DNA of 64,000 bases, taken from positions 12,078 to 76,077 of IMG/VR virus record IMGVR_UViG_3300018080_000165. One strand, given 5' to 3'. The translations under genes and the position numbers were made by a program. The DNA comes from a virus. Below the pieces are notes generated by a model. It was not told the DNA's origin and did no database searches. It worked only from the letters and a program-made list of their open reading frames with translations. This document shows, piece by piece, positions 2 through 11,923 of the stretch; the first letter of the stretch is position 1, and every line of letters starts with the position of its first letter.

Positions 2-1339
2 CTTCCTGGCCGTCTTCTTGCGCGGAGCCTTCGGCTTCCGCTTGGCGGCTTTTTTCACGGTCTTCTTTGCCACTTTCTTTTTCCGGCCCTTCTTTACCAC
101 CTTCTTCTTTGCCGCCTTCTTCTTCACTTTCTTCCTGCCCTTCTTGGCAGCCTTCTTGGGATCGATCTCCCTGTATGCGAAGGCCCGCTTTTTCTTCTCA
201 TCCGGCGGCACCAAGGCGAAGACGGTTCCCGTCACCGAATCCATCGCGGCGAATTCGTCGTCCTTCATTTGGGCTTCCACGTTCGCCAGCGCATCCCCGT
301 CGAGTTCCTTTTCGGCAGGGATCATCACCACCCCATTGCAGAACGGCGTTGCTCGGTCGTTCTTCTCGTGCGTGATGATGTAAGGCACGTCCAGATCGGC
401 GATCTCTCCACCGTCAGCCACGAAGAGTGACTTGAAAAGCGTGTAGGCCGTCCAGAGTTTCTTCTTCTTCAACAATGCCGGAATCTTTGCGTATTCCGGC
501 CACTGCTTCGTGTTGCAGTGCTTGTAGTGTCTCGGTTGGAAGAAGTCCGCGAACTCCTTTTTCACCGAGGCTTGCGTTGCTTCCTTCGACTTCCTAGCTC
601 CGGCGACGAACTCTTTGGCGACGGTCAGACGATCCGGGTTGTCTTCCTCGTCACCTTCTTCGTCGTCGGCTTCCGCTTCCTCTTCTTCTTCCTCTTCCTC
701 TTCCTCCTCTTCTTCCTCTTCGTCAACCTCTACTTCGTCTTCCTCTCCTTCCTCTTCCTCCTCTTCGTCCTCTTCGGATTCCTCTTCCTCTTCTTCTTCC
801 TCTTCTTCGTCCTCCTCACCTTCCTCCTCTTCCTCTTCCTCCTCCTCTTCTTCCTCTTCCTCTTCTTCGGATTCCTCTTCCTCTTCTTCTTCCTCTTCCT
901 CGTCCTCACCGGCAGCGAGCTTTTCGCAAGCCTTCTTCACTGCGGCTTCCTTGTCCTCCAACTTCTTCCCGACCTTCACGTCGAGCAGACGGGCCGCTCG
1001 GGTCAAGGTCTTTTGGTTGGCAACGGCGTCCTCATCGCTGCACACTGCCGCGATACCTTCCAGCGCGGCCTTGATGTCGGCGAAGGTCATGTCGCCAGGA
1101 TCGACGCCGATCTTCTCACAAAGGGCCTTCAACTTCTTGCCCTTCATCTTCTTGATGAGTTTCGCGGAAGGAAGACCGATGTCGATGGTTTCCGCTTCTT
1201 CTTCTTCCTCTTCCTCGGGTTCCTCTTCCTCGGCAGGCTTCGCGGCCTTTCCACCGAGAATCTTGCCGAGTGCCGCGAAGAACTTCTCACAGAGCGCCAA
1301 GCACTTCGCGCCCTTCACAATCTTCGGACTTTTCGCCAT
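2..1339 (-). CDS. Low-complexity protein with central poly-Glu/Asp tract and histone-H1-like Lys/Ala-rich C-terminal tail (runs off window edge)
   Basis: Not in ORF track (no stop inside window). ATG at 1339 with AGGAG RBS; reads MAKSPKIVKGAKCLALCEKFF...EEEEEE...KKAAKKGRKKVKKKAAKKKVVKK; open for ~446 codons. Confidence 0.85.
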   Translation of the reverse strand, partial: MAKSPKIVKGAKCLALCEKFFAALGKILGGKAAKPAEEEEPEEEEEEEAETIDIGLPSAKLIKKMKGKKLKALCEKIGVDPGDMTFADIKAALEGIAAVCSDEDAVANQKTLTRAARLLDVKVGKKLEDKEAAVKKACEKLAAGEDEEEEEEEEEESEEEEEEEEEEEEEEEEGEEDEEEEEEEEEESEEDEEEEEEGEEDEVEVDEEEEEEEEEEEEEEEAEADDEEGDEEDNPDRLTVAKEFVAGARKSKEATQASVKKEFADFFQPRHYKHCNTKQWPEYAKIPALLKKKKLWTAYTLFKSLFVADGGEIADLDVPYIITHEKNDRATPFCNGVVMIPAEKELDGDALANVEAQMKDDEFAAMDSVTGTVFALVPPDEKKKRAFAYREIDPKKAAKKGRKKVKKKAAKKKVVKKGRKKKVAKKTVKKAAKRKPKAPRKKTARK

Positions 1340-4616: not shown

Positions 4617-5054
4617 TTATCTCCTTTTCTTCCACACATCCCGGAAGTACCAGCCATACTCGGGAACACCATTGCCGTCGATCCTCTTGCACACCTGTCG
4701 GAGCGCAAGATCGAACAGTTCGAAGATGTCATCCTTGATGTCGTTCCGGTCTCTGCCGGAAATGGTGATCTTGAATCCTACGAACTGGGGACGCACAATG
4801 ACAGTGTGGTATGTCCACCCGTCGTAGAATCCATACTTGTTCATGTGGTGAAATGATGTGTCGAAAACCAACTTCTCTGCCGTCGAACGGTTGCAGTCCA
4901 GTGTGGTTCCGTCGTCGAACCCGCCCCCGGACGGATAAAACTGCTCTTCCATCCATTGAAGTGTGCTGTAGTACGCGTGCGTATGGTCATCCGTGCACCT
5001 TGTCAGCGCGTTGAGAATGGAAGACAACTCCTGTGCCACGGTGTATTCCGACAT
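4617..5054 (-). CDS. Hypothetical phage protein
   Basis: ORF with AGGAG RBS. Confidence 0.75.
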   Translation of the reverse strand: MSEYTVAQELSSILNALTRCTDDHTHAYYSTLQWMEEQFYPSGGGFDDGTTLDCNRSTAEKLVFDTSFHHMNKYGFYDGWTYHTVIVRPQFVGFKITISGRDRNDIKDDIFELFDLALRQVCKRIDGNGVPEYGWYFRDVWKKRR

Positions 5055-5078
5055 TTGAATCTCCTTTCTTCTCCGAAC

Positions 5079-5423
5079 TCAGACACGAGCCTGTGCCTTC
5101 AACTCTCCGTTCGCTGCGATCTCGTCTCCGTCCTTGAAAGGGAAGCCGCGTTTCCATCCTTCGTGCCAATACCACACGTGGGAATGTTGGCTGATCCTGT
5201 AGTTCCCAGGCAAGTACCGATTGATCCGGTCTTTCGTGGTGACGGTCTCCCATCCGCCCGTCACCACGATGATTCTGCCGTCCGGCTTGAAACGTAGGAT
5301 GTTGGTTCTGTGCAACCGGACGCAGATGTCCTTCCCGTCCCGCTCCAAGTAGGTGTTGTTCGTCAACTTACGGCTTTTCTTACACCTGCCTTGAAGCAAA
5401 CTGTCCGCTTTCTTGTAAGTCAT
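5079..5423 (-). CDS. Conserved-type phage hypothetical protein
   Basis: RLHRTNILRFKPDGRIIVVTGGWETVTTKDRIN pattern typical of phage early proteins. Confidence 0.7.
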   Translation of the reverse strand: MTYKKADSLLQGRCKKSRKLTNNTYLERDGKDICVRLHRTNILRFKPDGRIIVVTGGWETVTTKDRINRYLPGNYRISQHSHVWYWHEGWKRGFPFKDGDEIAANGELKAQARV

Positions 5424-5821
5424 TCCCGTTCTCCTTTCTTCTTCAAGAGTGTTTTGACGGCCCATTTGCGCATTGCCGCCCATTCGGTTCCGACACTGTT
5501 CCAACCCCCGCCCTTGTTCCAGGCGTCGTACAACTCTTGCGGGAGCGGAATGCCTTGCTCCCACGTCTTGCGGGAAACAGTCTTCGGCAAGCCGCTGTTA
5601 CCGTAAGCGCCGCACACGAAGACAGTCCTGTTCTTGACACGGGCACAGCCCATCATCCAATGTCCGCATTGCCTGAGTGCGACCTTGCGGACGATTCCAC
5701 GTAAATTGTTTTTCTTACCCACGTCCTCATCGTCCGGTTGCATGAGGATCAAAAACGGAGCGCGTCTGTGATGCTGCTCCGTACCTTTGTAGTACGTCCC
5801 TGCTTCATCTGTCACGTACAT
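5420..5821 (-). CDS. Hypothetical protein
   Basis: ORF with AGGAG RBS. Confidence 0.7.
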   Translation of the reverse strand: MYVTDEAGTYYKGTEQHHRRAPFLILMQPDDEDVGKKNNLRGIVRKVALRQCGHWMMGCARVKNRTVFVCGAYGNSGLPKTVSRKTWEQGIPLPQELYDAWNKGGGWNSVGTEWAAMRKWAVKTLLKKKGERE

Positions 5822-6191
5822 GCCGGTTCTCCTTTTTCATCAACCGGAATTGACCAGAACATATGGTCAATCTGCCGGACATCCTGTCCTTCTTGTTCTT
5901 TGCTGCGCACACATAGTTCTTCAAGCTACCGCCGGCAGGAACACGGGTTTTCACCCCGCATCTTTGGCAAACAACATCCCTTGTCTTCCGAACATACACC
6001 GTCTTTGCCTTCTTCTTCGTTTTGGTCCCGCTCCCGAAGATTTCGGGATGGCTCTTTGCCAAGCGTTTGTTCACCGCTTCCAGAAGCGCGTTGTTAGGAT
6101 CGTTGTCCATCGCTTCGCCCAATTTCACGAACTCCTCATCCCGAAGATGCTCTTCGAGAACCTTCGCTGTCTTCACGAAAATCGCTTGCAT
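5805..6191 (-). CDS. Hypothetical protein with CxxC
   Basis: VVCQRCG; AGGAG RBS. Confidence 0.7.
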   Translation of the reverse strand: MQAIFVKTAKVLEEHLRDEEFVKLGEAMDNDPNNALLEAVNKRLAKSHPEIFGSGTKTKKKAKTVYVRKTRDVVCQRCGVKTRVPAGGSLKNYVCAAKNKKDRMSGRLTICSGQFRLMKKENRHVRDR

Positions 6192-6244
6192 GATTCTCTC
6201 CTTTCAGATTGTGTTTTCGTCACTTGTGAAAACGAAGAAGTCAA

Positions 6245-6592
6245 TCAACCTTTCTCACGTAGCACACACCCACCAGTGCTCTCTTGATTTCGTGTTCGGC
6301 GGACTTCTTCGCTTCGAGAGCATCCTCTTCCCGACGATGTACTCCGTACTCGGGATGGATTCTCGACTCTTCTTCCGTTGTCATCGTACCCTAGAGAACG
6401 CGCGGCTTGATGGACGTACTCAGCAAACTTCGCGTCCACCGCCGAAAACTCGACGCCCTGTTCTCTCATTGCATCGACCGATTCCAAGGTCTTTTCCCCG
6501 ATCTTGGCGATGTCCAGGATGTGCATGTCGTCTTCACGACCCAAGACGACAGCAACTTCGTACAAAAACGCTTTGACACGACCCATGGTCAT
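6245..6592 (-). CDS. Hypothetical protein (first gene after structured leader)
   Basis: ATG after GAGGGAG. Confidence 0.6.
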   Translation of the reverse strand: MTMGRVKAFLYEVAVVLGREDDMHILDIAKIGEKTLESVDAMREQGVEFSAVDAKFAEYVHQAARSLGYDDNGRRVENPSRVRSTSSGRGCSRSEEVRRTRNQESTGGCVLREKG

Positions 6593-6599
6593 CTCCCTC

Positions 6600-7275
6600 T
6601 CTTTCTTCGGTTCACTTCTCAAAGGCCACTAGCAGTGCTCCCGGCGTTTTCGCGATCCGCCGCTTTTTGCGTCGCGCCTAACCCGCGCTTTCAAGCCAAC
6701 GTGCCGACCTGTTCCGCGCTCGTGACGCCGCATTTTGTTTTCGGCTTGAATCGACATACCAGAAGCATTAGCTAGGGGTCTTTTCCCCTATCCACGGCGA
6801 GACTGCGACTTTGCACGTGCATTCCCCGCGACCTGGCCTATCGGCACGGCCCGCTATGGTTTTGGATTGCCTTACGGGACGAGGTTTGCACGCGACAGCT
6901 TTTGCCAAGACTTAGAACCTAACCATTCCGGTTTTCTGGATTAGGACGGGAGCGAAGATGGCCCGCTTGTCACCACCTAGCCCGATCCGCCGTTCGTCCG
7001 AAGGTCTGCTTGGCCGCTTGTCCGTCTCTGTGTGTTCGCAACCGGGTGCTTTCCCGGTCCACTCGCGGTTTGCGGCCCGCCCCTAGCAATCGTCTCCCGA
7101 CGATTCCGTGGGCGCGAACCCCGCTCTTAATCCTGCGATTCATTCCCGCGACCTTGGCTTGCTCCGTTGGATTCGGCTTCAGGCCGTACCCTAGCTCGGG
7201 TTCCCCGCGCGTCACATAGAACGCGATAACCGGGTTTCGCCGTCGCTCGTAAATCGCTCAATTGTCAAAGAACAT
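6600..7275 (-). ncRNA. Candidate large structured non-coding RNA / 5' leader
   Basis: No credible ORF; multiple hairpins (7088-7105 with GNRA loop, 7041-7058, 6773-6790, 6690-6750), long-range helices and a duplicated internal motif. Confidence 0.6.
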
Positions 7276-7316
7276 TATACTATGTGGCATTATAGCGAAA
7301 TGCCAGCATAGTGCAA
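7261..7316 (-). promoter_or_regulatory. Sigma70-like promoter with overlapping inverted repeat and downstream boxA-like site
   Basis: TTGCAC(7316-7311)-N16-TATAAT(7294-7289); IR 7279-7312; TGTTCTTTGACAAT at 7274-7261. Confidence 0.65.
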
Positions 7317-7477
7317 GCACAGAAAAAACTTTTTCACGTGAAATTTCACTAATTCCTGCACATGGTGCACAAGTGCAGGATAGGGCCACATCTGCTTATA
7401 GGTTATCACATGACGGTAGACGGGGTTTACCAGATTACCTCTATGCGAGCAAAGAAAGGGTATAAGTGACCTTGAAC

Positions 7478-8242
7478 CTATGCCATGCCGAGAAACTTGT
7501 GAACCTGTGGGACAAACCTGACGGCCAAACACCTTTTCACATCGTCGCTGAACGGAAAGGCAAAAGCACATTGATTTGTTTCACGTTGGTTTGAAAACAC
7601 CTTGTCTTTTTCGGAAAAGATTCCACTCTCCAATATCACCTTTATCGCATCTGGATGGCCGTCAGCGGGTTGGATGAAAACTTCTCTCACAAAGACTTCT
7701 TCTTTCAGGATTTCCTCGACTTCCCTCATGTCCTGTTCCGTGCCGACAACGAACTTGAAATAGCAATTCGTCATATAACGGACCAATGTAGGAAGCGCAC
7801 TGCGCCTACCGGAGCTAGAGAGTTTCGGAGAAATGATCCATGCGTCAATGCAAACGAAATGTTTCGGATCGCACTTGTCCAGAAGTTCCCCGTTCGTTTC
7901 GATTGAAGTCCCGAACGCCGGTTCGATCTCTTTGCAGATTTGAACAATCTGTGGAAGGAAGATAGTAGGCTCACCGCCAGTGAAAACAACATGGCGCTTG
8001 TGAAGAGGAAAAGACTTCAAAACAGAAATAACATACTCGACAGATAACGAAAGGTGTTTTGTTTCCGCCTGACTCGGTTTGATATTTTCCGGTTTGTAGC
8101 CGCTATCGCACCAACTACATGTTCGATTGCATCCAAGAGTCCTCAGAAAAACAGAAGGAAGGCCAACTGTTGGACCTTCCCCGGAAATCGTCTCATAAAT
8201 TTCATGTACACCAATTTCTTTAGGAGTTCCTTGCCTCCGCAT
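7478..8242 (-). CDS. queE: 7-carboxy-7-deazaguanine synthase (radical SAM)
   Basis: EIYETISGEG, FLRTLGCNRTCSWCDS, TGGEP, ETNG, ISPKL, PQVHK. Confidence 0.92.
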   Translation of the reverse strand: MRRQGTPKEIGVHEIYETISGEGPTVGLPSVFLRTLGCNRTCSWCDSGYKPENIKPSQAETKHLSLSVEYVISVLKSFPLHKRHVVFTGGEPTIFLPQIVQICKEIEPAFGTSIETNGELLDKCDPKHFVCIDAWIISPKLSSSGRRSALPTLVRYMTNCYFKFVVGTEQDMREVEEILKEEVFVREVFIQPADGHPDAIKVILESGIFSEKDKVFSNQRETNQCAFAFPFSDDVKRCLAVRFVPQVHKFLGMA

Positions 8243-8636
8243 AAGATGTATTCGTTTCCCAAACGCGAAGGGAGTCCAGTCTTGCGGATTCATGCTCGAA
8301 ACACTCCTTCATCTCCGCGAACCAATGAAGCGCCAACACTTCAACCGTAGGGTCTTGATGGATTATGAACACGTGTTCCCTGAAGCCGCCCTCAATGAGA
8401 ACGCCCGCGAGAGGATCGTCTATTTTGAGAACGACTTTATGATCCCATCTCTCCACGACGTGTTTCAACTTTTTGAGTTCCGCGAAGTCCACCACAAATC
8501 CGTTGTCGCCTATGTTGCCGTAGGCCGTCAACTCCACGCGGTAGTTGTGCCCGTGCAAGAAACGACACTTCCCTTCGTGCCGCATCAACCTATGGGCGAT
8601 AGAGAACTCGCCCAAAAATTTCGTTACCTTGACCAT
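8220..8636 (-). CDS. queD: 6-carboxytetrahydropterin synthase
   Basis: AHRL...CRFLHGHNY, VVDF, DH, PTVE, VWET. Confidence 0.93.
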   Translation of the reverse strand: MVKVTKFLGEFSIAHRLMRHEGKCRFLHGHNYRVELTAYGNIGDNGFVVDFAELKKLKHVVERWDHKVVLKIDDPLAGVLIEGGFREHVFIIHQDPTVEVLALHWFAEMKECFEHESARLDSLRVWETNTSYAEARNS

Positions 8637-8640
8637 TAGT

Positions 8641-8838
8641 TTACCTCATTCCTAGGCTACCTCTTCCTTTGTCCTTGCACGCATTCCGACCGAGTTTTTG
8701 TTCGATCCACACTTGCGCCATGGGCCGATCTTCTTTCTTCAACGTCTTGAAATCCTCAAAGCACTCATTACACACGGCATGTCCCGCGATTGTCCTATGA
8801 GGATTCCCTTCGTTTTCCCGGCAGGCGCAACATCTCAT
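8641..8838 (-). CDS. Small Zn-finger protein
   Basis: CCAC...CNEC. Confidence 0.6.
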   Translation of the reverse strand: MRCCACRENEGNPHRTIAGHAVCNECFEDFKTLKKEDRPMAQVWIEQKLGRNACKDKGRGSLGMR

Positions 8839-8841
8839 ACC

Positions 8842-9264
8842 CTACTCTCCTTTGTCTTCTTCGGATTTTTCACCTTCATCTTCCTTGGGCGCTTCTTCAG
8901 GGGATACGACAGTCTTCGGAGGAGCGTCAAAGACGTACTCGACAGTCTTGTTCTTTACGGCTTCGGTGAAATTCCGAAACATGTTCACGCAATCGACACG
9001 GTTCTCGTAGCCTTGCCCGCCTTGCGAGCCGGTGCCGAAGAGATAATTCCCGTTGGCACTGTACACGCTTACCTCGTGTTTGGCTTTCTTTCCCTTTCCC
9101 TGCCTGCTGAACACGACTTGATGAGTCATCTTTCCTGAAATCGCCATTGATTCGCTCCTTTCTTTCTCTTCAATCTTACTTCTCCAAAAAGCAAAAAACG
9201 ACAATGCTCCCACAAGAGCTATGATCGTGAGCGCATACATTAGGTCTACCATGTGATCTCTCAT
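8842..9264 (-). CDS. Membrane-anchored protein with YegP/DUF1508-like segment
   Basis: N-terminal TM helix; VYSANGNYLF...GQGYENRVDC resembles DUF1508. Confidence 0.5.
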   Translation of the reverse strand: MRDHMVDLMYALTIIALVGALSFFAFWRSKIEEKERSESMAISGKMTHQVVFSRQGKGKKAKHEVSVYSANGNYLFGTGSQGGQGYENRVDCVNMFRNFTEAVKNKTVEYVFDAPPKTVVSPEEAPKEDEGEKSEEDKGE

Positions 9265-9309
9265 GGTTTTACTCGCTCGTGATTCGAAGTTCTCCAAAAC
9301 AGCGCGTCG

Positions 9310-9599
9310 TGGCTCCCCCGCCTGGATTCGAACCAGGAATCGCGGATTACGCAGAAAGACGGAGCCTCCCAACAGTAACGGCACGATGACAAACAGCACA
9401 GAGCAACACGCACTTCTCAGCTTCTTTCCGCAGTCGTTCATATGATTCATTACACCCAGCAATTACAAATAGCTTTCGTATGCCTTTTCGATGATGAAAG
9501 TCAAAGCCTTCTCGCCCATCTCGCGTCGGCGTTTTGTCTTCGTCCCTTTCTGCATTTTCAATCTCCTTCGCCGTCGTGATACCATTTCACCACAGGGAA
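9310..9599 (-). tRNA. tRNA-Asn-like gene interrupted at the anticodon loop by a 221-nt insert (probable pseudo/split tRNA)
   Basis: 5' half 9599-9571 TTCCCTG-TG-GTGAAATGGTATCAC-G-ACGG; 3' half 9349-9310 TAATCCGC-GATT-CCTGGTTCGAATCCAGG-CGGGGGA-G-CCA; acceptor stems pair. Confidence 0.75.
9347..9570 (-). pseudogene. HNH endonuclease C-terminal remnant inside the tRNA
   Basis: Frame reads FDFHHRKGIRKLFVIAGCNESYERLRKEAEKCVLLCAVCHRAVTVGRLRLSA*, no ATG start. Confidence 0.7.
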
Positions 9600-10166
9600 T
9601 CATTTTATGTGCTCCAGGATTTCATCCTTGACTTGCAAACCCGCTTGCCCGAGCACGACGCAGACTTTGGTCGCCGCATGGATGTCACCAGTTCCCGTGC
9701 ATACACACGCATGGTGGGCCTTGGAGAGAACGCAAACGGCTTCAGGTTTGAGCCTTTCTTCAAGCTCTGCGGCGATTCTATGCGTGAACTCTTCTTGAAG
9801 AGTTCCGACCTTCGAGAAGAATTCAACCAACTGTGGAAGTTTCGAGAATCCGACGATGTGTTTTCCTGGTAAATAACCGATTCCGACTGTCCCATAGAAC
9901 GGCACGAAGTGATGTTGGCAGATCGATACGAAACAGATGTCTCGCATGACAACGATGTCGTTCCCTCTTGATTTGAACAACTTGAAGTCGAAAGGTAATC
10001 GGTGAGGATAGCGATCATTGATCTTGTCCTTGTTCGCTGTCATCTGTTCAAGCATCTTGACGACACGCCGGGGAGTCTCCAGCGTTTCGTTCTTCAGCTT
10101 TATGCCTAGATGGTGGCACATCCGGGCATAGGCTTTTTCAGCCGATTTACGCTTTCTGGCGTTCAC
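9600..10166 (-). CDS. folE: GTP cyclohydrolase I
   Basis: ETPRRV, SICQHHFVPFYG, VGFSKL, LQEE, HACV. Confidence 0.92.
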   Translation of the reverse strand: MNARKRKSAEKAYARMCHHLGIKLKNETLETPRRVVKMLEQMTANKDKINDRYPHRLPFDFKLFKSRGNDIVVMRDICFVSICQHHFVPFYGTVGIGYLPGKHIVGFSKLPQLVEFFSKVGTLQEEFTHRIAAELEERLKPEAVCVLSKAHHACVCTGTGDIHAATKVCVVLGQAGLQVKDEILEHIK

Positions 10167-10848
10167 AGAACTCCTCCCAACCCTTCTTTCGGAGTAAGCA
10201 AGCTGGACATTTTCCGCATCCGTGTCCCCAACTGTGTTTGCCTAACCCTGTGTTATAGCAAGTCGCTGTTTCAGTCAAGATGGTTTCCAGAACGCCCAAC
10301 TCATCCGCTGCTTCAAAGATGCGCGCCTTCGTCATGTTTATTAACGGCGTGAACAGGCGCACAGTGTTCTTAGGCAATCCCAAGGCGAAGTTGATAGCGT
10401 CTTCACACGCAGCAACAAACTCATAACGGCAATCAGGATAGCCGCTGGAATCCGCTTGGCACACGCCGCTGTAGATGTGCTCTATCCCCCGGCTGACGGC
10501 CACTCCGGCAGCGATAGAGAAGAACACCATGTTCCGGCCAGGAACAAACGACGTGGGCAATCCCTTGAACCTCTTGCTTTCCTCGATCTTCTCAAAACTG
10601 TACCCTGTCAGAGCGGAATCGAGGAGTGCTCCGTAGTTCTTCAAATCAACGGTGTCGTGCTTGCGGACTTCGAAGATTTTCCCTATCCGCTTTGCTTGGA
10701 GCAGTTCCATCTCATGCCGCTGGCCGTAACAAAAAGACAGAGCATCCACGAACGGATACTTGAAGTTCCGTTTCATCAGCGCAAGACAGGTTGCCGAATC
10801 CTGTCCGCCGGAAAGAAGAATCAGTGCGCCTTTTTGTCCTGATTCCAT
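10147..10848 (-). CDS. queC: 7-cyano-7-deazaguanine synthase
   Basis: SGGQDS PP-loop, YGQRH, FVPGRN, DSSGYPDCR, TCY...CGKCPAC. Confidence 0.93.
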   Translation of the reverse strand: MESGQKGALILLSGGQDSATCLALMKRNFKYPFVDALSFCYGQRHEMELLQAKRIGKIFEVRKHDTVDLKNYGALLDSALTGYSFEKIEESKRFKGLPTSFVPGRNMVFFSIAAGVAVSRGIEHIYSGVCQADSSGYPDCRYEFVAACEDAINFALGLPKNTVRLFTPLINMTKARIFEAADELGVLETILTETATCYNTGLGKHSWGHGCGKCPACLLRKKGWEEFCERQKA

Positions 10849-11519
10849 TTCTTGTACACCTTCTGTGCAGAGGTTATCGCGGAAGCCCGAACCAAACATG
10901 CGAGGCACACTTCGCAACCTTTTGGATCGTAGTTGCAGGAATTCGTTTTTTCAAGATCGATGCCGAGACTAAGCGCGAGCAAAGCAACTTGATGCTTCTG
11001 GAATCCGCATTCAAGAAACGGCGCTCGTATCTCGGTGATTTCGTCTTTCGTGAAGCCGCCGACTTCCTGAAGTTCCCGATACGTGTCAAGGAAAGCGGAA
11101 GTGCGATCCGAATGCGGTTCCTCCTCTTCGTGATGGAAACCCACGAACAGGTCCATCTCTTCTATGCTGGCCAAACAAGCGCCCTGTGTGATGAGGAAAG
11201 TGTTCCTTCCGTTGATGTAGTCCTTGGCAATGGAACTGCGTCCAGGTTCTATCTTCTCGCCAAAGCGGAAAATCGGCCCGCCTTTGACTTCATCTTTCAT
11301 CGGTATGTCAGCCCTGTGCCTCACCAAGAATCCTCTCCCGAGAACTCCTTGATGATACTCGACGTACTCTATGGACTTTTCTGTTGTCACTTGCCCGAAG
11401 TCAACGACCAAGTTGATGATCCGTTCTTCAGGGTTCACTCCGTACACAAAGGGGTTCTTTGCGATGGCATAGAACAGCGCGGTAGAATCTAGTCCTCCAG
11501 AAGCCAGGATCACGGGCAT
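10821..11519 (-). CDS. Divergent QueC-family paralog
   Basis: SGGLDS, FGQ, INGRN, APF, NSC...CEVCLACLVR; YPDCR replaced by HSDRT. Confidence 0.85.
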   Translation of the reverse strand: MPVILASGGLDSTALFYAIAKNPFVYGVNPEERIINLVVDFGQVTTEKSIEYVEYHQGVLGRGFLVRHRADIPMKDEVKGGPIFRFGEKIEPGRSSIAKDYINGRNTFLITQGACLASIEEMDLFVGFHHEEEEPHSDRTSAFLDTYRELQEVGGFTKDEITEIRAPFLECGFQKHQVALLALSLGIDLEKTNSCNYDPKGCEVCLACLVRASAITSAQKVYKKWNQDKKAH

Positions 11520-11923
11520 TTTCTTTCTCCTTCCGCTGTGCAACGTATCCTCACACCGCCGCGAGAGTTGAACGTGGTACTCACACTCACAGTCAAAGGA
11601 TCGATGGCTTTCAAGAAGTCATCTCGAATCCTTGCTGTGATGCTTTCCTGAAACGCCTTGAAGTTCCTGTAGCTCCCCAAGTACAGCTTCAGCGACTTCG
11701 ATTCACAGATGCTTTCGAAAGGCGTGTACTGTATGTCGATTGCCCCGAAGTCCGGTTGTCCCGTCACCGGACAGAGAGACGTGAACTCTTCGAAAGAAAT
11801 GCAGATACTCGGCGTTGGATGCTTCACTTGGAAAGGAACGCCTACGAGCAAGGATGGCGAATATTCTTCTGGAAACGGAACCACTTTGCCGAGCGGGATG
11901 TCTTCCATGGCCGTACCGTCCAC
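11510..11923 (-). CDS. queF: NADPH-dependent preQ0 reductase (unimodular)
   Basis: EFTSLCPVTGQPDF catalytic Cys, QueF motif ESKSLKLY, RGG. Confidence 0.9.
   Translation of the reverse strand: MDGTAMEDIPLGKVVPFPEEYSPSLLVGVPFQVKHPTPSICISFEEFTSLCPVTGQPDFGAIDIQYTPFESICESKSLKLYLGSYRNFKAFQESITARIRDDFLKAIDPLTVSVSTTFNSRGGVRIRCTAEGERKCP

Follow-up and report, generated by a model that had tools for sequence, protein, structure and literature searches.

The early leader of phage lambda (pL-nutL-N) is about 220 nt long. Its boxA is followed after a few nt by boxB, a hairpin of 5 bp closed by a GNRA-like pentaloop. Among cis-acting RNAs of processive antitermination, the put element of HK022 comprises two stem-loops of about 70 nt that lie just past the promoter and act on RNA polymerase, and the EAR element, which is represented in Rfam, is about 120 nt. 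Leaders containing boxA are found in rRNA operons, where the NusB/NusE/NusA/NusG/SuhB antitermination complex acts, and in suhB (PMC5725501, PMC6614797). The gamma-proteobacterial boxA consensus is GYTCTTTAANA (PMC5725501), and the rrn boxA consensus is UGCUCUUUAACA in E. coli and (A)UGAUCUUUGAAA in B. subtilis (PMC13753749). In addition, giant RNAs associated with phages are known, including GOLLD and ROOL (PMC12286853, PMC5737381).

The locus described here lies in a 76-kb IMG/VR virus record with an estimated completeness of 79%, of which a stretch of 64,000 nucleotides (the window, whose positions are used throughout) was analyzed. The phage is uncultured, from marine or sediment sources. 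The minus strand holds nearly all genes of the window, and PHROG matches in the window include terminase, portal, DNA polymerase, a DnaB-like helicase and a UvsX/RecA-like recombinase. Upstream of the locus, in transcriptional order, is a 7-deazaguanine (queuosine-type) gene cluster (7478-11923, minus strand), in which Pfam identified a radical-SAM QueE-like protein (7478-8293) and PTPS/QueD (8220-8636). Downstream of it is a series of small genes whose function is unassigned. The QueE-like protein is very divergent, as its nearest relative among 5.8 billion proteins had 39% identity and was on a 1.1-kb contig. The nearest cultured-phage relatives of the portal protein, at 32% identity, were those of Streptomyces BRock-like phages and Bacillus BCD7. 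By these comparisons the phage is a singleton from a lineage without close relatives.

A sequence-only reading of the window had proposed that the stretch between the two gene groups is a large ornate RNA of about 650 nt heading an early operon. We instead interpret it, tentatively and at somewhat under even confidence, as a long untranslated 5' leader (about 0.7 kb) of the small-gene operon, which is presumed to be early. In function, the stretch would appear to most resemble the boxA-containing leaders of rRNA operons, suhB and lambda nutL. As in the rRNA and suhB leaders, a boxA-like sequence, UGUUCUUUGACAA, is located a few tens of nt or less past a predicted sigma-70-type promoter, and as in rRNA leaders a long, untranslated, structured and G-rich RNA would face the problem of escape from Rho. 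Unlike in rRNA operons, the RNA downstream is not rRNA and the leader precedes protein-coding genes. The boxA-like sequence also differs from rrn boxA: compared with the E. coli consensus it matches 10 of 12 positions and departs at two, and the same holds for that of B. subtilis.

The predicted order of an early promoter, an untranslated leader with a boxA-like sequence and then a small first gene resembles that of lambda pL-nutL-N, and the product of the first small gene of this phage, like lambda N, has an Arg-rich segment. Unlike lambda nut, however, the locus has no boxB hairpin after the boxA-like site and no recognizable N-like protein, and unlike lambda N the 113-aa first product has no detectable relatives or family. 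Like HK022 put and EAR, the stretch would be RNA close to the promoter within a long operon's leader, but at about 700 nt it is far from the dimensions of either, and no Rfam match to EAR was obtained in it. With ROOL, GOLLD and OLE it shares the size class (about 600-800 nt), phage association, a non-coding and purine-rich sequence, and GNRA-type loops. It differs from them in matching none of their covariance models, in having neither thermodynamic nor comparative evidence of a conserved fold, in having no terminator of its own, and in its position, which is that of a 5' leader and not of a distinct gene beside tRNAs.

The stretch had been described as the longest gene-free one in the window, and this was borne out. 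No credible gene was found in the 891 bases between the stop of the QueE-like gene at 7478 and the ATG of the first small gene at 6586 (minus strand). In the whole window, 6587-7477 is the longest run lacking a credible minus-strand gene, the next largest gaps being about 200-300 nt. The ORFs inside 6587-7477 are spurious, Arg-rich and only 81-95 aa long. No single stop-codon reassignment opened a frame, as several mixed stops were present in all three minus-strand and all three plus-strand frames. The longest stop-to-stop fragments returned nothing credible from PHROG or Pfam, where DUF4714 alone was listed (E = 0.042, 14.4 bits vs a 27-bit cutoff), and had no tblastn match in 50,697 phage records. 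A tRNA/tmRNA scan found neither.

A codon log-odds score trained on the long genes of the phage itself gave +0.11 +/- 0.08 in frame and -0.24 +/- 0.12 off frame for true genes. Over 7400-6650 the best frame scored from -0.19 to +0.05, between the in-frame and off-frame values, and therefore carried neither a gene-like signal nor that of a recent frameshifted pseudogene. Together, an open frame, gene-like codon usage and residual protein similarity, by which a gene or recent pseudogene would be recognized, were all absent from the stretch. The stretch has no coding capacity, as the sequence-only reading held. One or more unconventional small genes, such as a frameshifted gene or short ORFs whose start signals are weak, might still be hidden here, as minus-strand ORFs of 42-81 aa are present. 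We regard this as extremely unlikely, because none of these ORFs has a Shine-Dalgarno sequence, whereas the real genes here have strong ones, their products are Arg-rich, junk-like and without homologues, and a gene-like codon score is reached in no frame.

The upstream end of the stretch is formed by an AT-rich segment (7335-7262, minus strand) that contains, in order, an A/T tract, a -35-like hexamer, a 17-nt spacer, a -10 hexamer and a boxA-like 13-mer (Table 1). The arrangement TTGCAC-17-TATAAT at 7317-7289 suggests a promoter, and the A/T-rich tract AAAAAGTTTTTTCTGTGC is, by its position, a candidate UP element. The claim that the stretch lies directly behind a promoter therefore has this minus-strand arrangement in its favor, but a consensus promoter scan called no site at threshold in the stretch, since the -35 hexamer fits only 3 of 6 positions of TTGACA. 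Between the QueE-like gene and the A/T tract are two inverted-repeat elements (Table 1); the fold of 7300-7420, which includes them, had z = -1.4. The hairpin at 7354-7380 is possibly the end or terminator of the upstream 7-deazaguanine (Que) operon, or an operator. Taken together with the palindrome at 7336-7347, it could likewise terminate the Que operon or be a site for an activator or repressor-type operator.

Table 1. Sequence features in and around the gene-free stretch (positions in the window).
Feature	Position	Strand	Remarks
Hairpin CCUGCAC...GUGCAGG	7354..7380	-	After QueE-like gene; inverted repeat I5, 9-11 bp
Perfect 12-bp palindrome TTTCACGTGAAA	7336-7347		Between the 7354-7380 hairpin and the -35
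A/T-rich tract AAAAAGTTTTTTCTGTGC	7318..7335	-	Adjoins the -35 upstream, in the UP-element position
-35-like hexamer TTGCAC	7312..7317	-	From sequence; 17 nt upstream of a perfect TATAAT
-10 hexamer TATAAT	7289..7294	-	From sequence
Predicted untranslated 5' leader of small-gene operon, ~696 nt	6587..7282	-	Runs from the inferred start (~7282) up to the last base preceding ATG 6586
Second TATAAT	7279-7274	-	Overlaps the boxA-like element
boxA-like 13-mer UGUUCUUUGACAA	7262..7274	-	~+9 to +21 of the predicted transcript
Motif copy 1 GCCAAGGUCGCGGGAAUG	7140..7158	-	Sequence search
Locally over-stable element	7020..7125	-	-47.2 kcal/mol, z = -3.30, 1/200 shuffles as good
Motif copy 2 GCCA-GGUCGCGGGGAAUG	6820..6838	-	Sequence search
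Hairpin UAGGGG-AAAAGA-CCCCUA, 6 bp	6773..6790	-	In MFE and centroid of every window containing it
10-bp helix 6690-6699/6741-6750 enclosing a small hairpin	6690..6750	-	z = -0.24, not above chance
Shine-Dalgarno GAGGGAG	6593..6599	-	6 nt upstream of ATG 6586-6584

The boxA-like 13-mer was the sole exact match to TGYTCTTTRAMAA within the window. It agrees with GYTCTTTAANA at 10 of 11 positions, although this consensus is gamma-proteobacterial and may not be that of the host. The relaxed 11-mer occurred twice in the genome vs once for a reversed control, about the chance rate, and so the resemblance to boxA is suggestive rather than significant. The element also contains TTGACA and could be a coincidental -35-like string. 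We consider that it possibly acts as a boxA for Nus-type antitermination. No lambda-type boxB was detected: when 7141-7290 was folded, the 40 nt that follow the boxA-like site formed no hairpin, and the nearest hairpin with an A-rich loop (6773-6790) is about 480 nt away. No other boxB-like partner was seen for this site, nor any boxC-like one. The fold of the first 100 nt of the predicted transcript was no better than that of shuffles (z = 0.35).

Downstream of the boxA-like site, the stretch had no terminator-like site on the minus strand and no U-run of four or more, and G exceeded C (C/G below 1) in nearly all 78-nt windows. As there is no terminator or U4 run, a transcript from about 7282 would continue into the small-gene operon. 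This read-through argues for a 5' leader and against an independently terminated RNA gene. The first gene of the operon encodes a 113-aa product that is 100% identical to database protein P0001, and its codon log-odds are plainly coding from about 6575 downstream. P0001 has no relative besides itself in the protein database and no family match, and is carried by eight other contigs. The C-terminal half of this product is Arg/Ser-rich (6245-6425, minus strand), and the codon log-odds were non-coding from about 6425 to the next gene at 6191. The gene may in truth be shorter, or its tail may be a disordered or low-complexity segment.

Of the readings considered here, the leader requires the fewest assumptions. 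The earlier proposal also stood as to the position of the stretch at the head of the operon: it runs, on the transcribed minus strand, into the small genes without a terminator, which makes a leader reasonable. Against this, the boxA-like 11-mer is genome-wide no rarer than expected by chance, and the promoter is only consensus-like. A simple leader also leaves unexplained why about 0.7 kb has been kept in a densely coded phage and why its GC content is above that of its neighbors. The stretch had been called GC-rich, which holds to the extent of this rise, a modest one (58% vs about 53%).

If the leader reading is correct, host RNA polymerase would start near 7282 at a sigma-70-type, rRNA-like promoter made up of the A/T tract, TTGCAC, the 17-nt spacer and TATAAT, and would transcribe the boxA-like element within the first ~20 nt. 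The polymerase would then traverse about 670 nt of G-rich, U-poor RNA without an intrinsic terminator before arriving at the first gene (6586) and the strong ribosome-binding site that precedes it. Untranslated RNA of such length is normally exposed to Rho. We speculate that the excess of G over C lets transcription reach the genes despite Rho, and that a NusB/NusE complex loaded at the boxA-like site possibly adds protection, as in rRNA operons; the leader would then be one that is possibly protected by Nus factors at boxA. The alternative offered by the sequence-only reading, a put-like antitermination leader, gains some footing for antitermination from the boxA-like element, but nothing specific to HK022 put was found.

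Folding of the minus strand over 6590-7270 gave a minimum free energy (MFE) of -251.9 kcal/mol vs -248.2 +/- 5.7 for dinucleotide shuffles (z = -0.65), and 6 of 20 shuffles were as stable; the plus strand had z = +1.1. The proposal of an ornate RNA had itself named a folding energy no better than that of dinucleotide shuffles as evidence against it, and this was the outcome. Nine overlapping 150-nt windows had z values of 0.35, -1.30, -2.54, 0.60, 1.19, -1.79, -0.39, 0.54 and -0.89 (mean about -0.5), vs a mean of about -0.8 for 11 flanking coding windows, which included values of -2.4 and -3.2. The stretch is thermodynamically no more structured than the surrounding genes.

The only element that stands out for stability is at 7020-7125 (Table 1), consistent with the low value of the overlapping window 6991-7140 (z = -2.54). 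As this element was picked post hoc from about ten windows, its corrected significance is marginal. It consists of two hairpins, one at 7041-7058 and an extended one (about 7070-7120) whose cap is the GGGA-looped stem at 7088-7105. In the leader, such a stable hairpin domain could serve processing, stability or regulation. The local hairpins listed in the sequence-only reading were all present on inspection: the minus-strand stem at 7088-7105 has 7 bp closed by the GGGA loop, those at 7041-7058 and 6773-6790 have 6 bp each, and 6690-6699 pairs with 6741-6750 over 10 bp. The last of these includes one G-U pair if read as minus-strand RNA; in plus-strand RNA the same position would be mismatched (A-C).

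The long-range helices fared less well. Complementarity between 6794-6800 and 7237-7243 exists, and extends to 6794-6803/7234-7243, but it is within chance. The helix proposed between 7120-7133 and 6938-6950 is interrupted, with 6 bp, a loop and 3 bp rather than 13 bp. Such matches of 7-10 bp are as expected in 700 GC-rich bases.

These observations bear on whether the stretch is a new large structured non-coding RNA of about 650 nt, processed from the leader or acting within it, with a conserved complex fold on the scale of ROOL, GOLLD or OLE. We consider this distinctly unlikely. It would account for the raised GC content and for why a compact phage genome keeps so long a non-coding stretch. 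It is also consistent with several hairpins that have GNRA-type or A-rich loops, with one over-stable domain (z = -3.3), with some helices whose G-U pairs fit the minus strand only, and with the rRNA-style promoter and boxA-like arrangement, and phage-associated GOLLD and ROOL provide a precedent. On such a reading Nus factors loading at boxA would assist co-transcriptional folding, as they do for rRNA. The whole-region fold (z = -0.65), the 150-nt windows that were on average no more stable than flanking coding ones, the repeated motif and long-range helices within chance, and the lack of an own terminator all argue against it, as do the results of the family and homologue searches given below. 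The claim of a large ornate RNA of the ROOL/GOLLD/OLE class was thus not upheld, either by the folding energy or by the repeats and long-range helices.

A stronger version, in which the stretch is the founding member of a new class of large (about 0.65 kb) phage RNAs, made early from an rRNA-style promoter with boxA/Nus-assisted folding and acting on its own, for example as a scaffold, decoy or ROOL/GOLLD-like multimer, before or besides any role as a leader, is quite improbable; weakly in its favor are the long non-coding stretch that has been kept, the single over-stable domain and the boxA-like site. The result is mainly a negative one, in that features that looked ornate do not exceed chance. 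To list the stretch among structured-RNA discoveries would for this reason require expression or comparative data.

Searches for known RNA families yielded no candidates. Rfam 15 at gathering score had no match across the whole window, with ROOL, GOLLD, OLE, raiA and HEARO among its models, and at E <= 10 on 6300-7600 the only matches were two chance snoRNA hits, both outside the GC-rich stretch. This agrees with the statement in the sequence-only reading that no known family could be matched. The search for homologues, proposed there as a further check, was equally negative in INPHARED, IMG/VR, JGI metagenomes and GTDB genomes. Blastn against INPHARED phages returned no relative of the stretch. 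In IMG/VR, the 17-mer of motif copy 2 had one chance match, in a coding region, and the gapped motif had 10 chance matches; the promoter-plus-boxA pattern was present at at least 116 loci, none of them similar downstream by nhmmer or blastn. The neighboring proteins (the 113/114-aa product, QueE and portal) had no close relatives in IMG/VR. A 20-base gapped motif matched 65 and 73 loci in JGI metagenome contigs and GTDB species genomes, respectively, all of them matching the motif only.

The repeated motif, GGTCGCGGG(G)AATG (as RNA, GCCA(A)GGUCGCGGG(G)AAUG), is present in two copies, both in the stretch and nowhere else in the 76-kb genome. The sequence-only reading was thus correct that the motif occurs twice, but the duplication is not significant, as the best local alignment between the halves of the stretch scored 24 vs 19.6 +/- 2.4 (maximum 30) for shuffles. 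A second motif, GCTAG[GT][GT]G, has five copies in the stretch, all but one of them on the minus strand and the fifth on the plus strand. The density of CTAG is 8 times that of the whole window. The CTAG enrichment is real relative to the genome and absent relative to the stretch's own base composition. The sizes of k-mer repeat families in the stretch, that of GCTAGGGG included, were within the shuffle range.

Palindromes and repeats of this kind raise the question of whether the stretch matters as double-stranded DNA, for example by binding several proteins, by serving as an origin of replication, or as a site of recombination or attachment. No intergenic region is larger, and it has the palindrome at 7336-7347 and the inverted repeat at 7354-7380 at its upstream edge, together with the five GCTAG[GT][GT]G copies and dense CTAG. 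A DNA-level element is nonetheless very unlikely in our view, given that neither CTAG, relative to the stretch's own composition, nor the motif family, relative to shuffles, is enriched. Moreover, the GC-rich part has no AT-rich unwinding region, iteron-like tandem repeats are lacking, the cumulative GC skew does not turn at the stretch, and neither an integrase nor a replication initiator is adjacent.

In the index of public runs, the stretch was present in seven DNA runs with all sampled words, and in a low-depth eighth. These runs derive from sediment (2018) and seawater (2021), with six studies in all, and there were no RNA runs among them. Comparison of four of the DNA runs over 5000-9000 revealed no variant letters except for a 1-base deletion at 5676 in one contig. 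The public runs carried only the identical sequence and no homologue was found in the collections searched, so these data contain neither strain-level nor distant variation from which covariation could be read.

The same data are relevant to whether the stretch is non-functional spacer DNA, perhaps what is left of one or two fully decayed genes or of an inserted element between the Que and small-gene operons, and transcribed passively or not at all. Identical sequence in seven runs from six studies between 2018 and 2021 would argue against mere spacer, but the whole 4-kb region is equally invariant. The absence of any statistically supported feature other than one hairpin domain fits a spacer, and so do the intermediate codon scores, as expected of random or long-decayed sequence. 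The poorly scoring tail of the downstream 113-aa ORF is a further hint of local decay. Phages, however, rapidly delete useless DNA, and this genome is otherwise tight, with the next gaps at about 200-300 nt; no residual protein similarity was found in any frame, and the GC content is raised, not lowered. Based on both sets of observations we regard a spacer as fairly unlikely.

If the leader reading is true, the phage drives its early genes through an unusually long untranslated RNA, in a lineage without close relatives, and perhaps borrows the host rRNA antitermination machinery without a lambda-type N and boxB. This would be a modest addition to known phage transcription strategies. Were the stretch instead a new large structured RNA, it would join the very short list of giant phage-associated RNAs, which have no assigned functions.

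Several neighboring genes and sites merit description. A protein of the small-gene operon encoded at 5079-5564 (minus strand) had a weak Pfam match to Kyano_Gp96. Tblastn relatives at 32-51% identity come from Caulobacter phiCbK-like phages, where they lie in the terminal-repeat (early) regions, and from a 636-kb uncultured phage. The location of the phiCbK-like relatives in early regions fits the operon behind the leader being an early module. On the other side of the stretch, the 7-deazaguanine cluster also has a candidate FolE-like protein, two QueC-like ORFs and a QueF-like ORF, in addition to the QueE and QueD that the Pfam check returned.

Within the 3' end of the QueE-like gene, Logan contigs of three independent runs (X1, X2 and X5) end at 7569-7576 and the next contig starts at 7575-7585, with equal depth on either side. 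No repeated 14-mer that would explain this break was found at 7569-7585; it may be a small polymorphic site, and it is located a few codons before an odd 'QCAFAF' segment of QueE. The other end of these 6.7-kb contigs (about 872) coincides with the repetitive GAA/GAG codons of the protein encoded at 2-1339 (minus strand), in which a very long run of Glu/Asp residues and a tail rich in Lys were noted.
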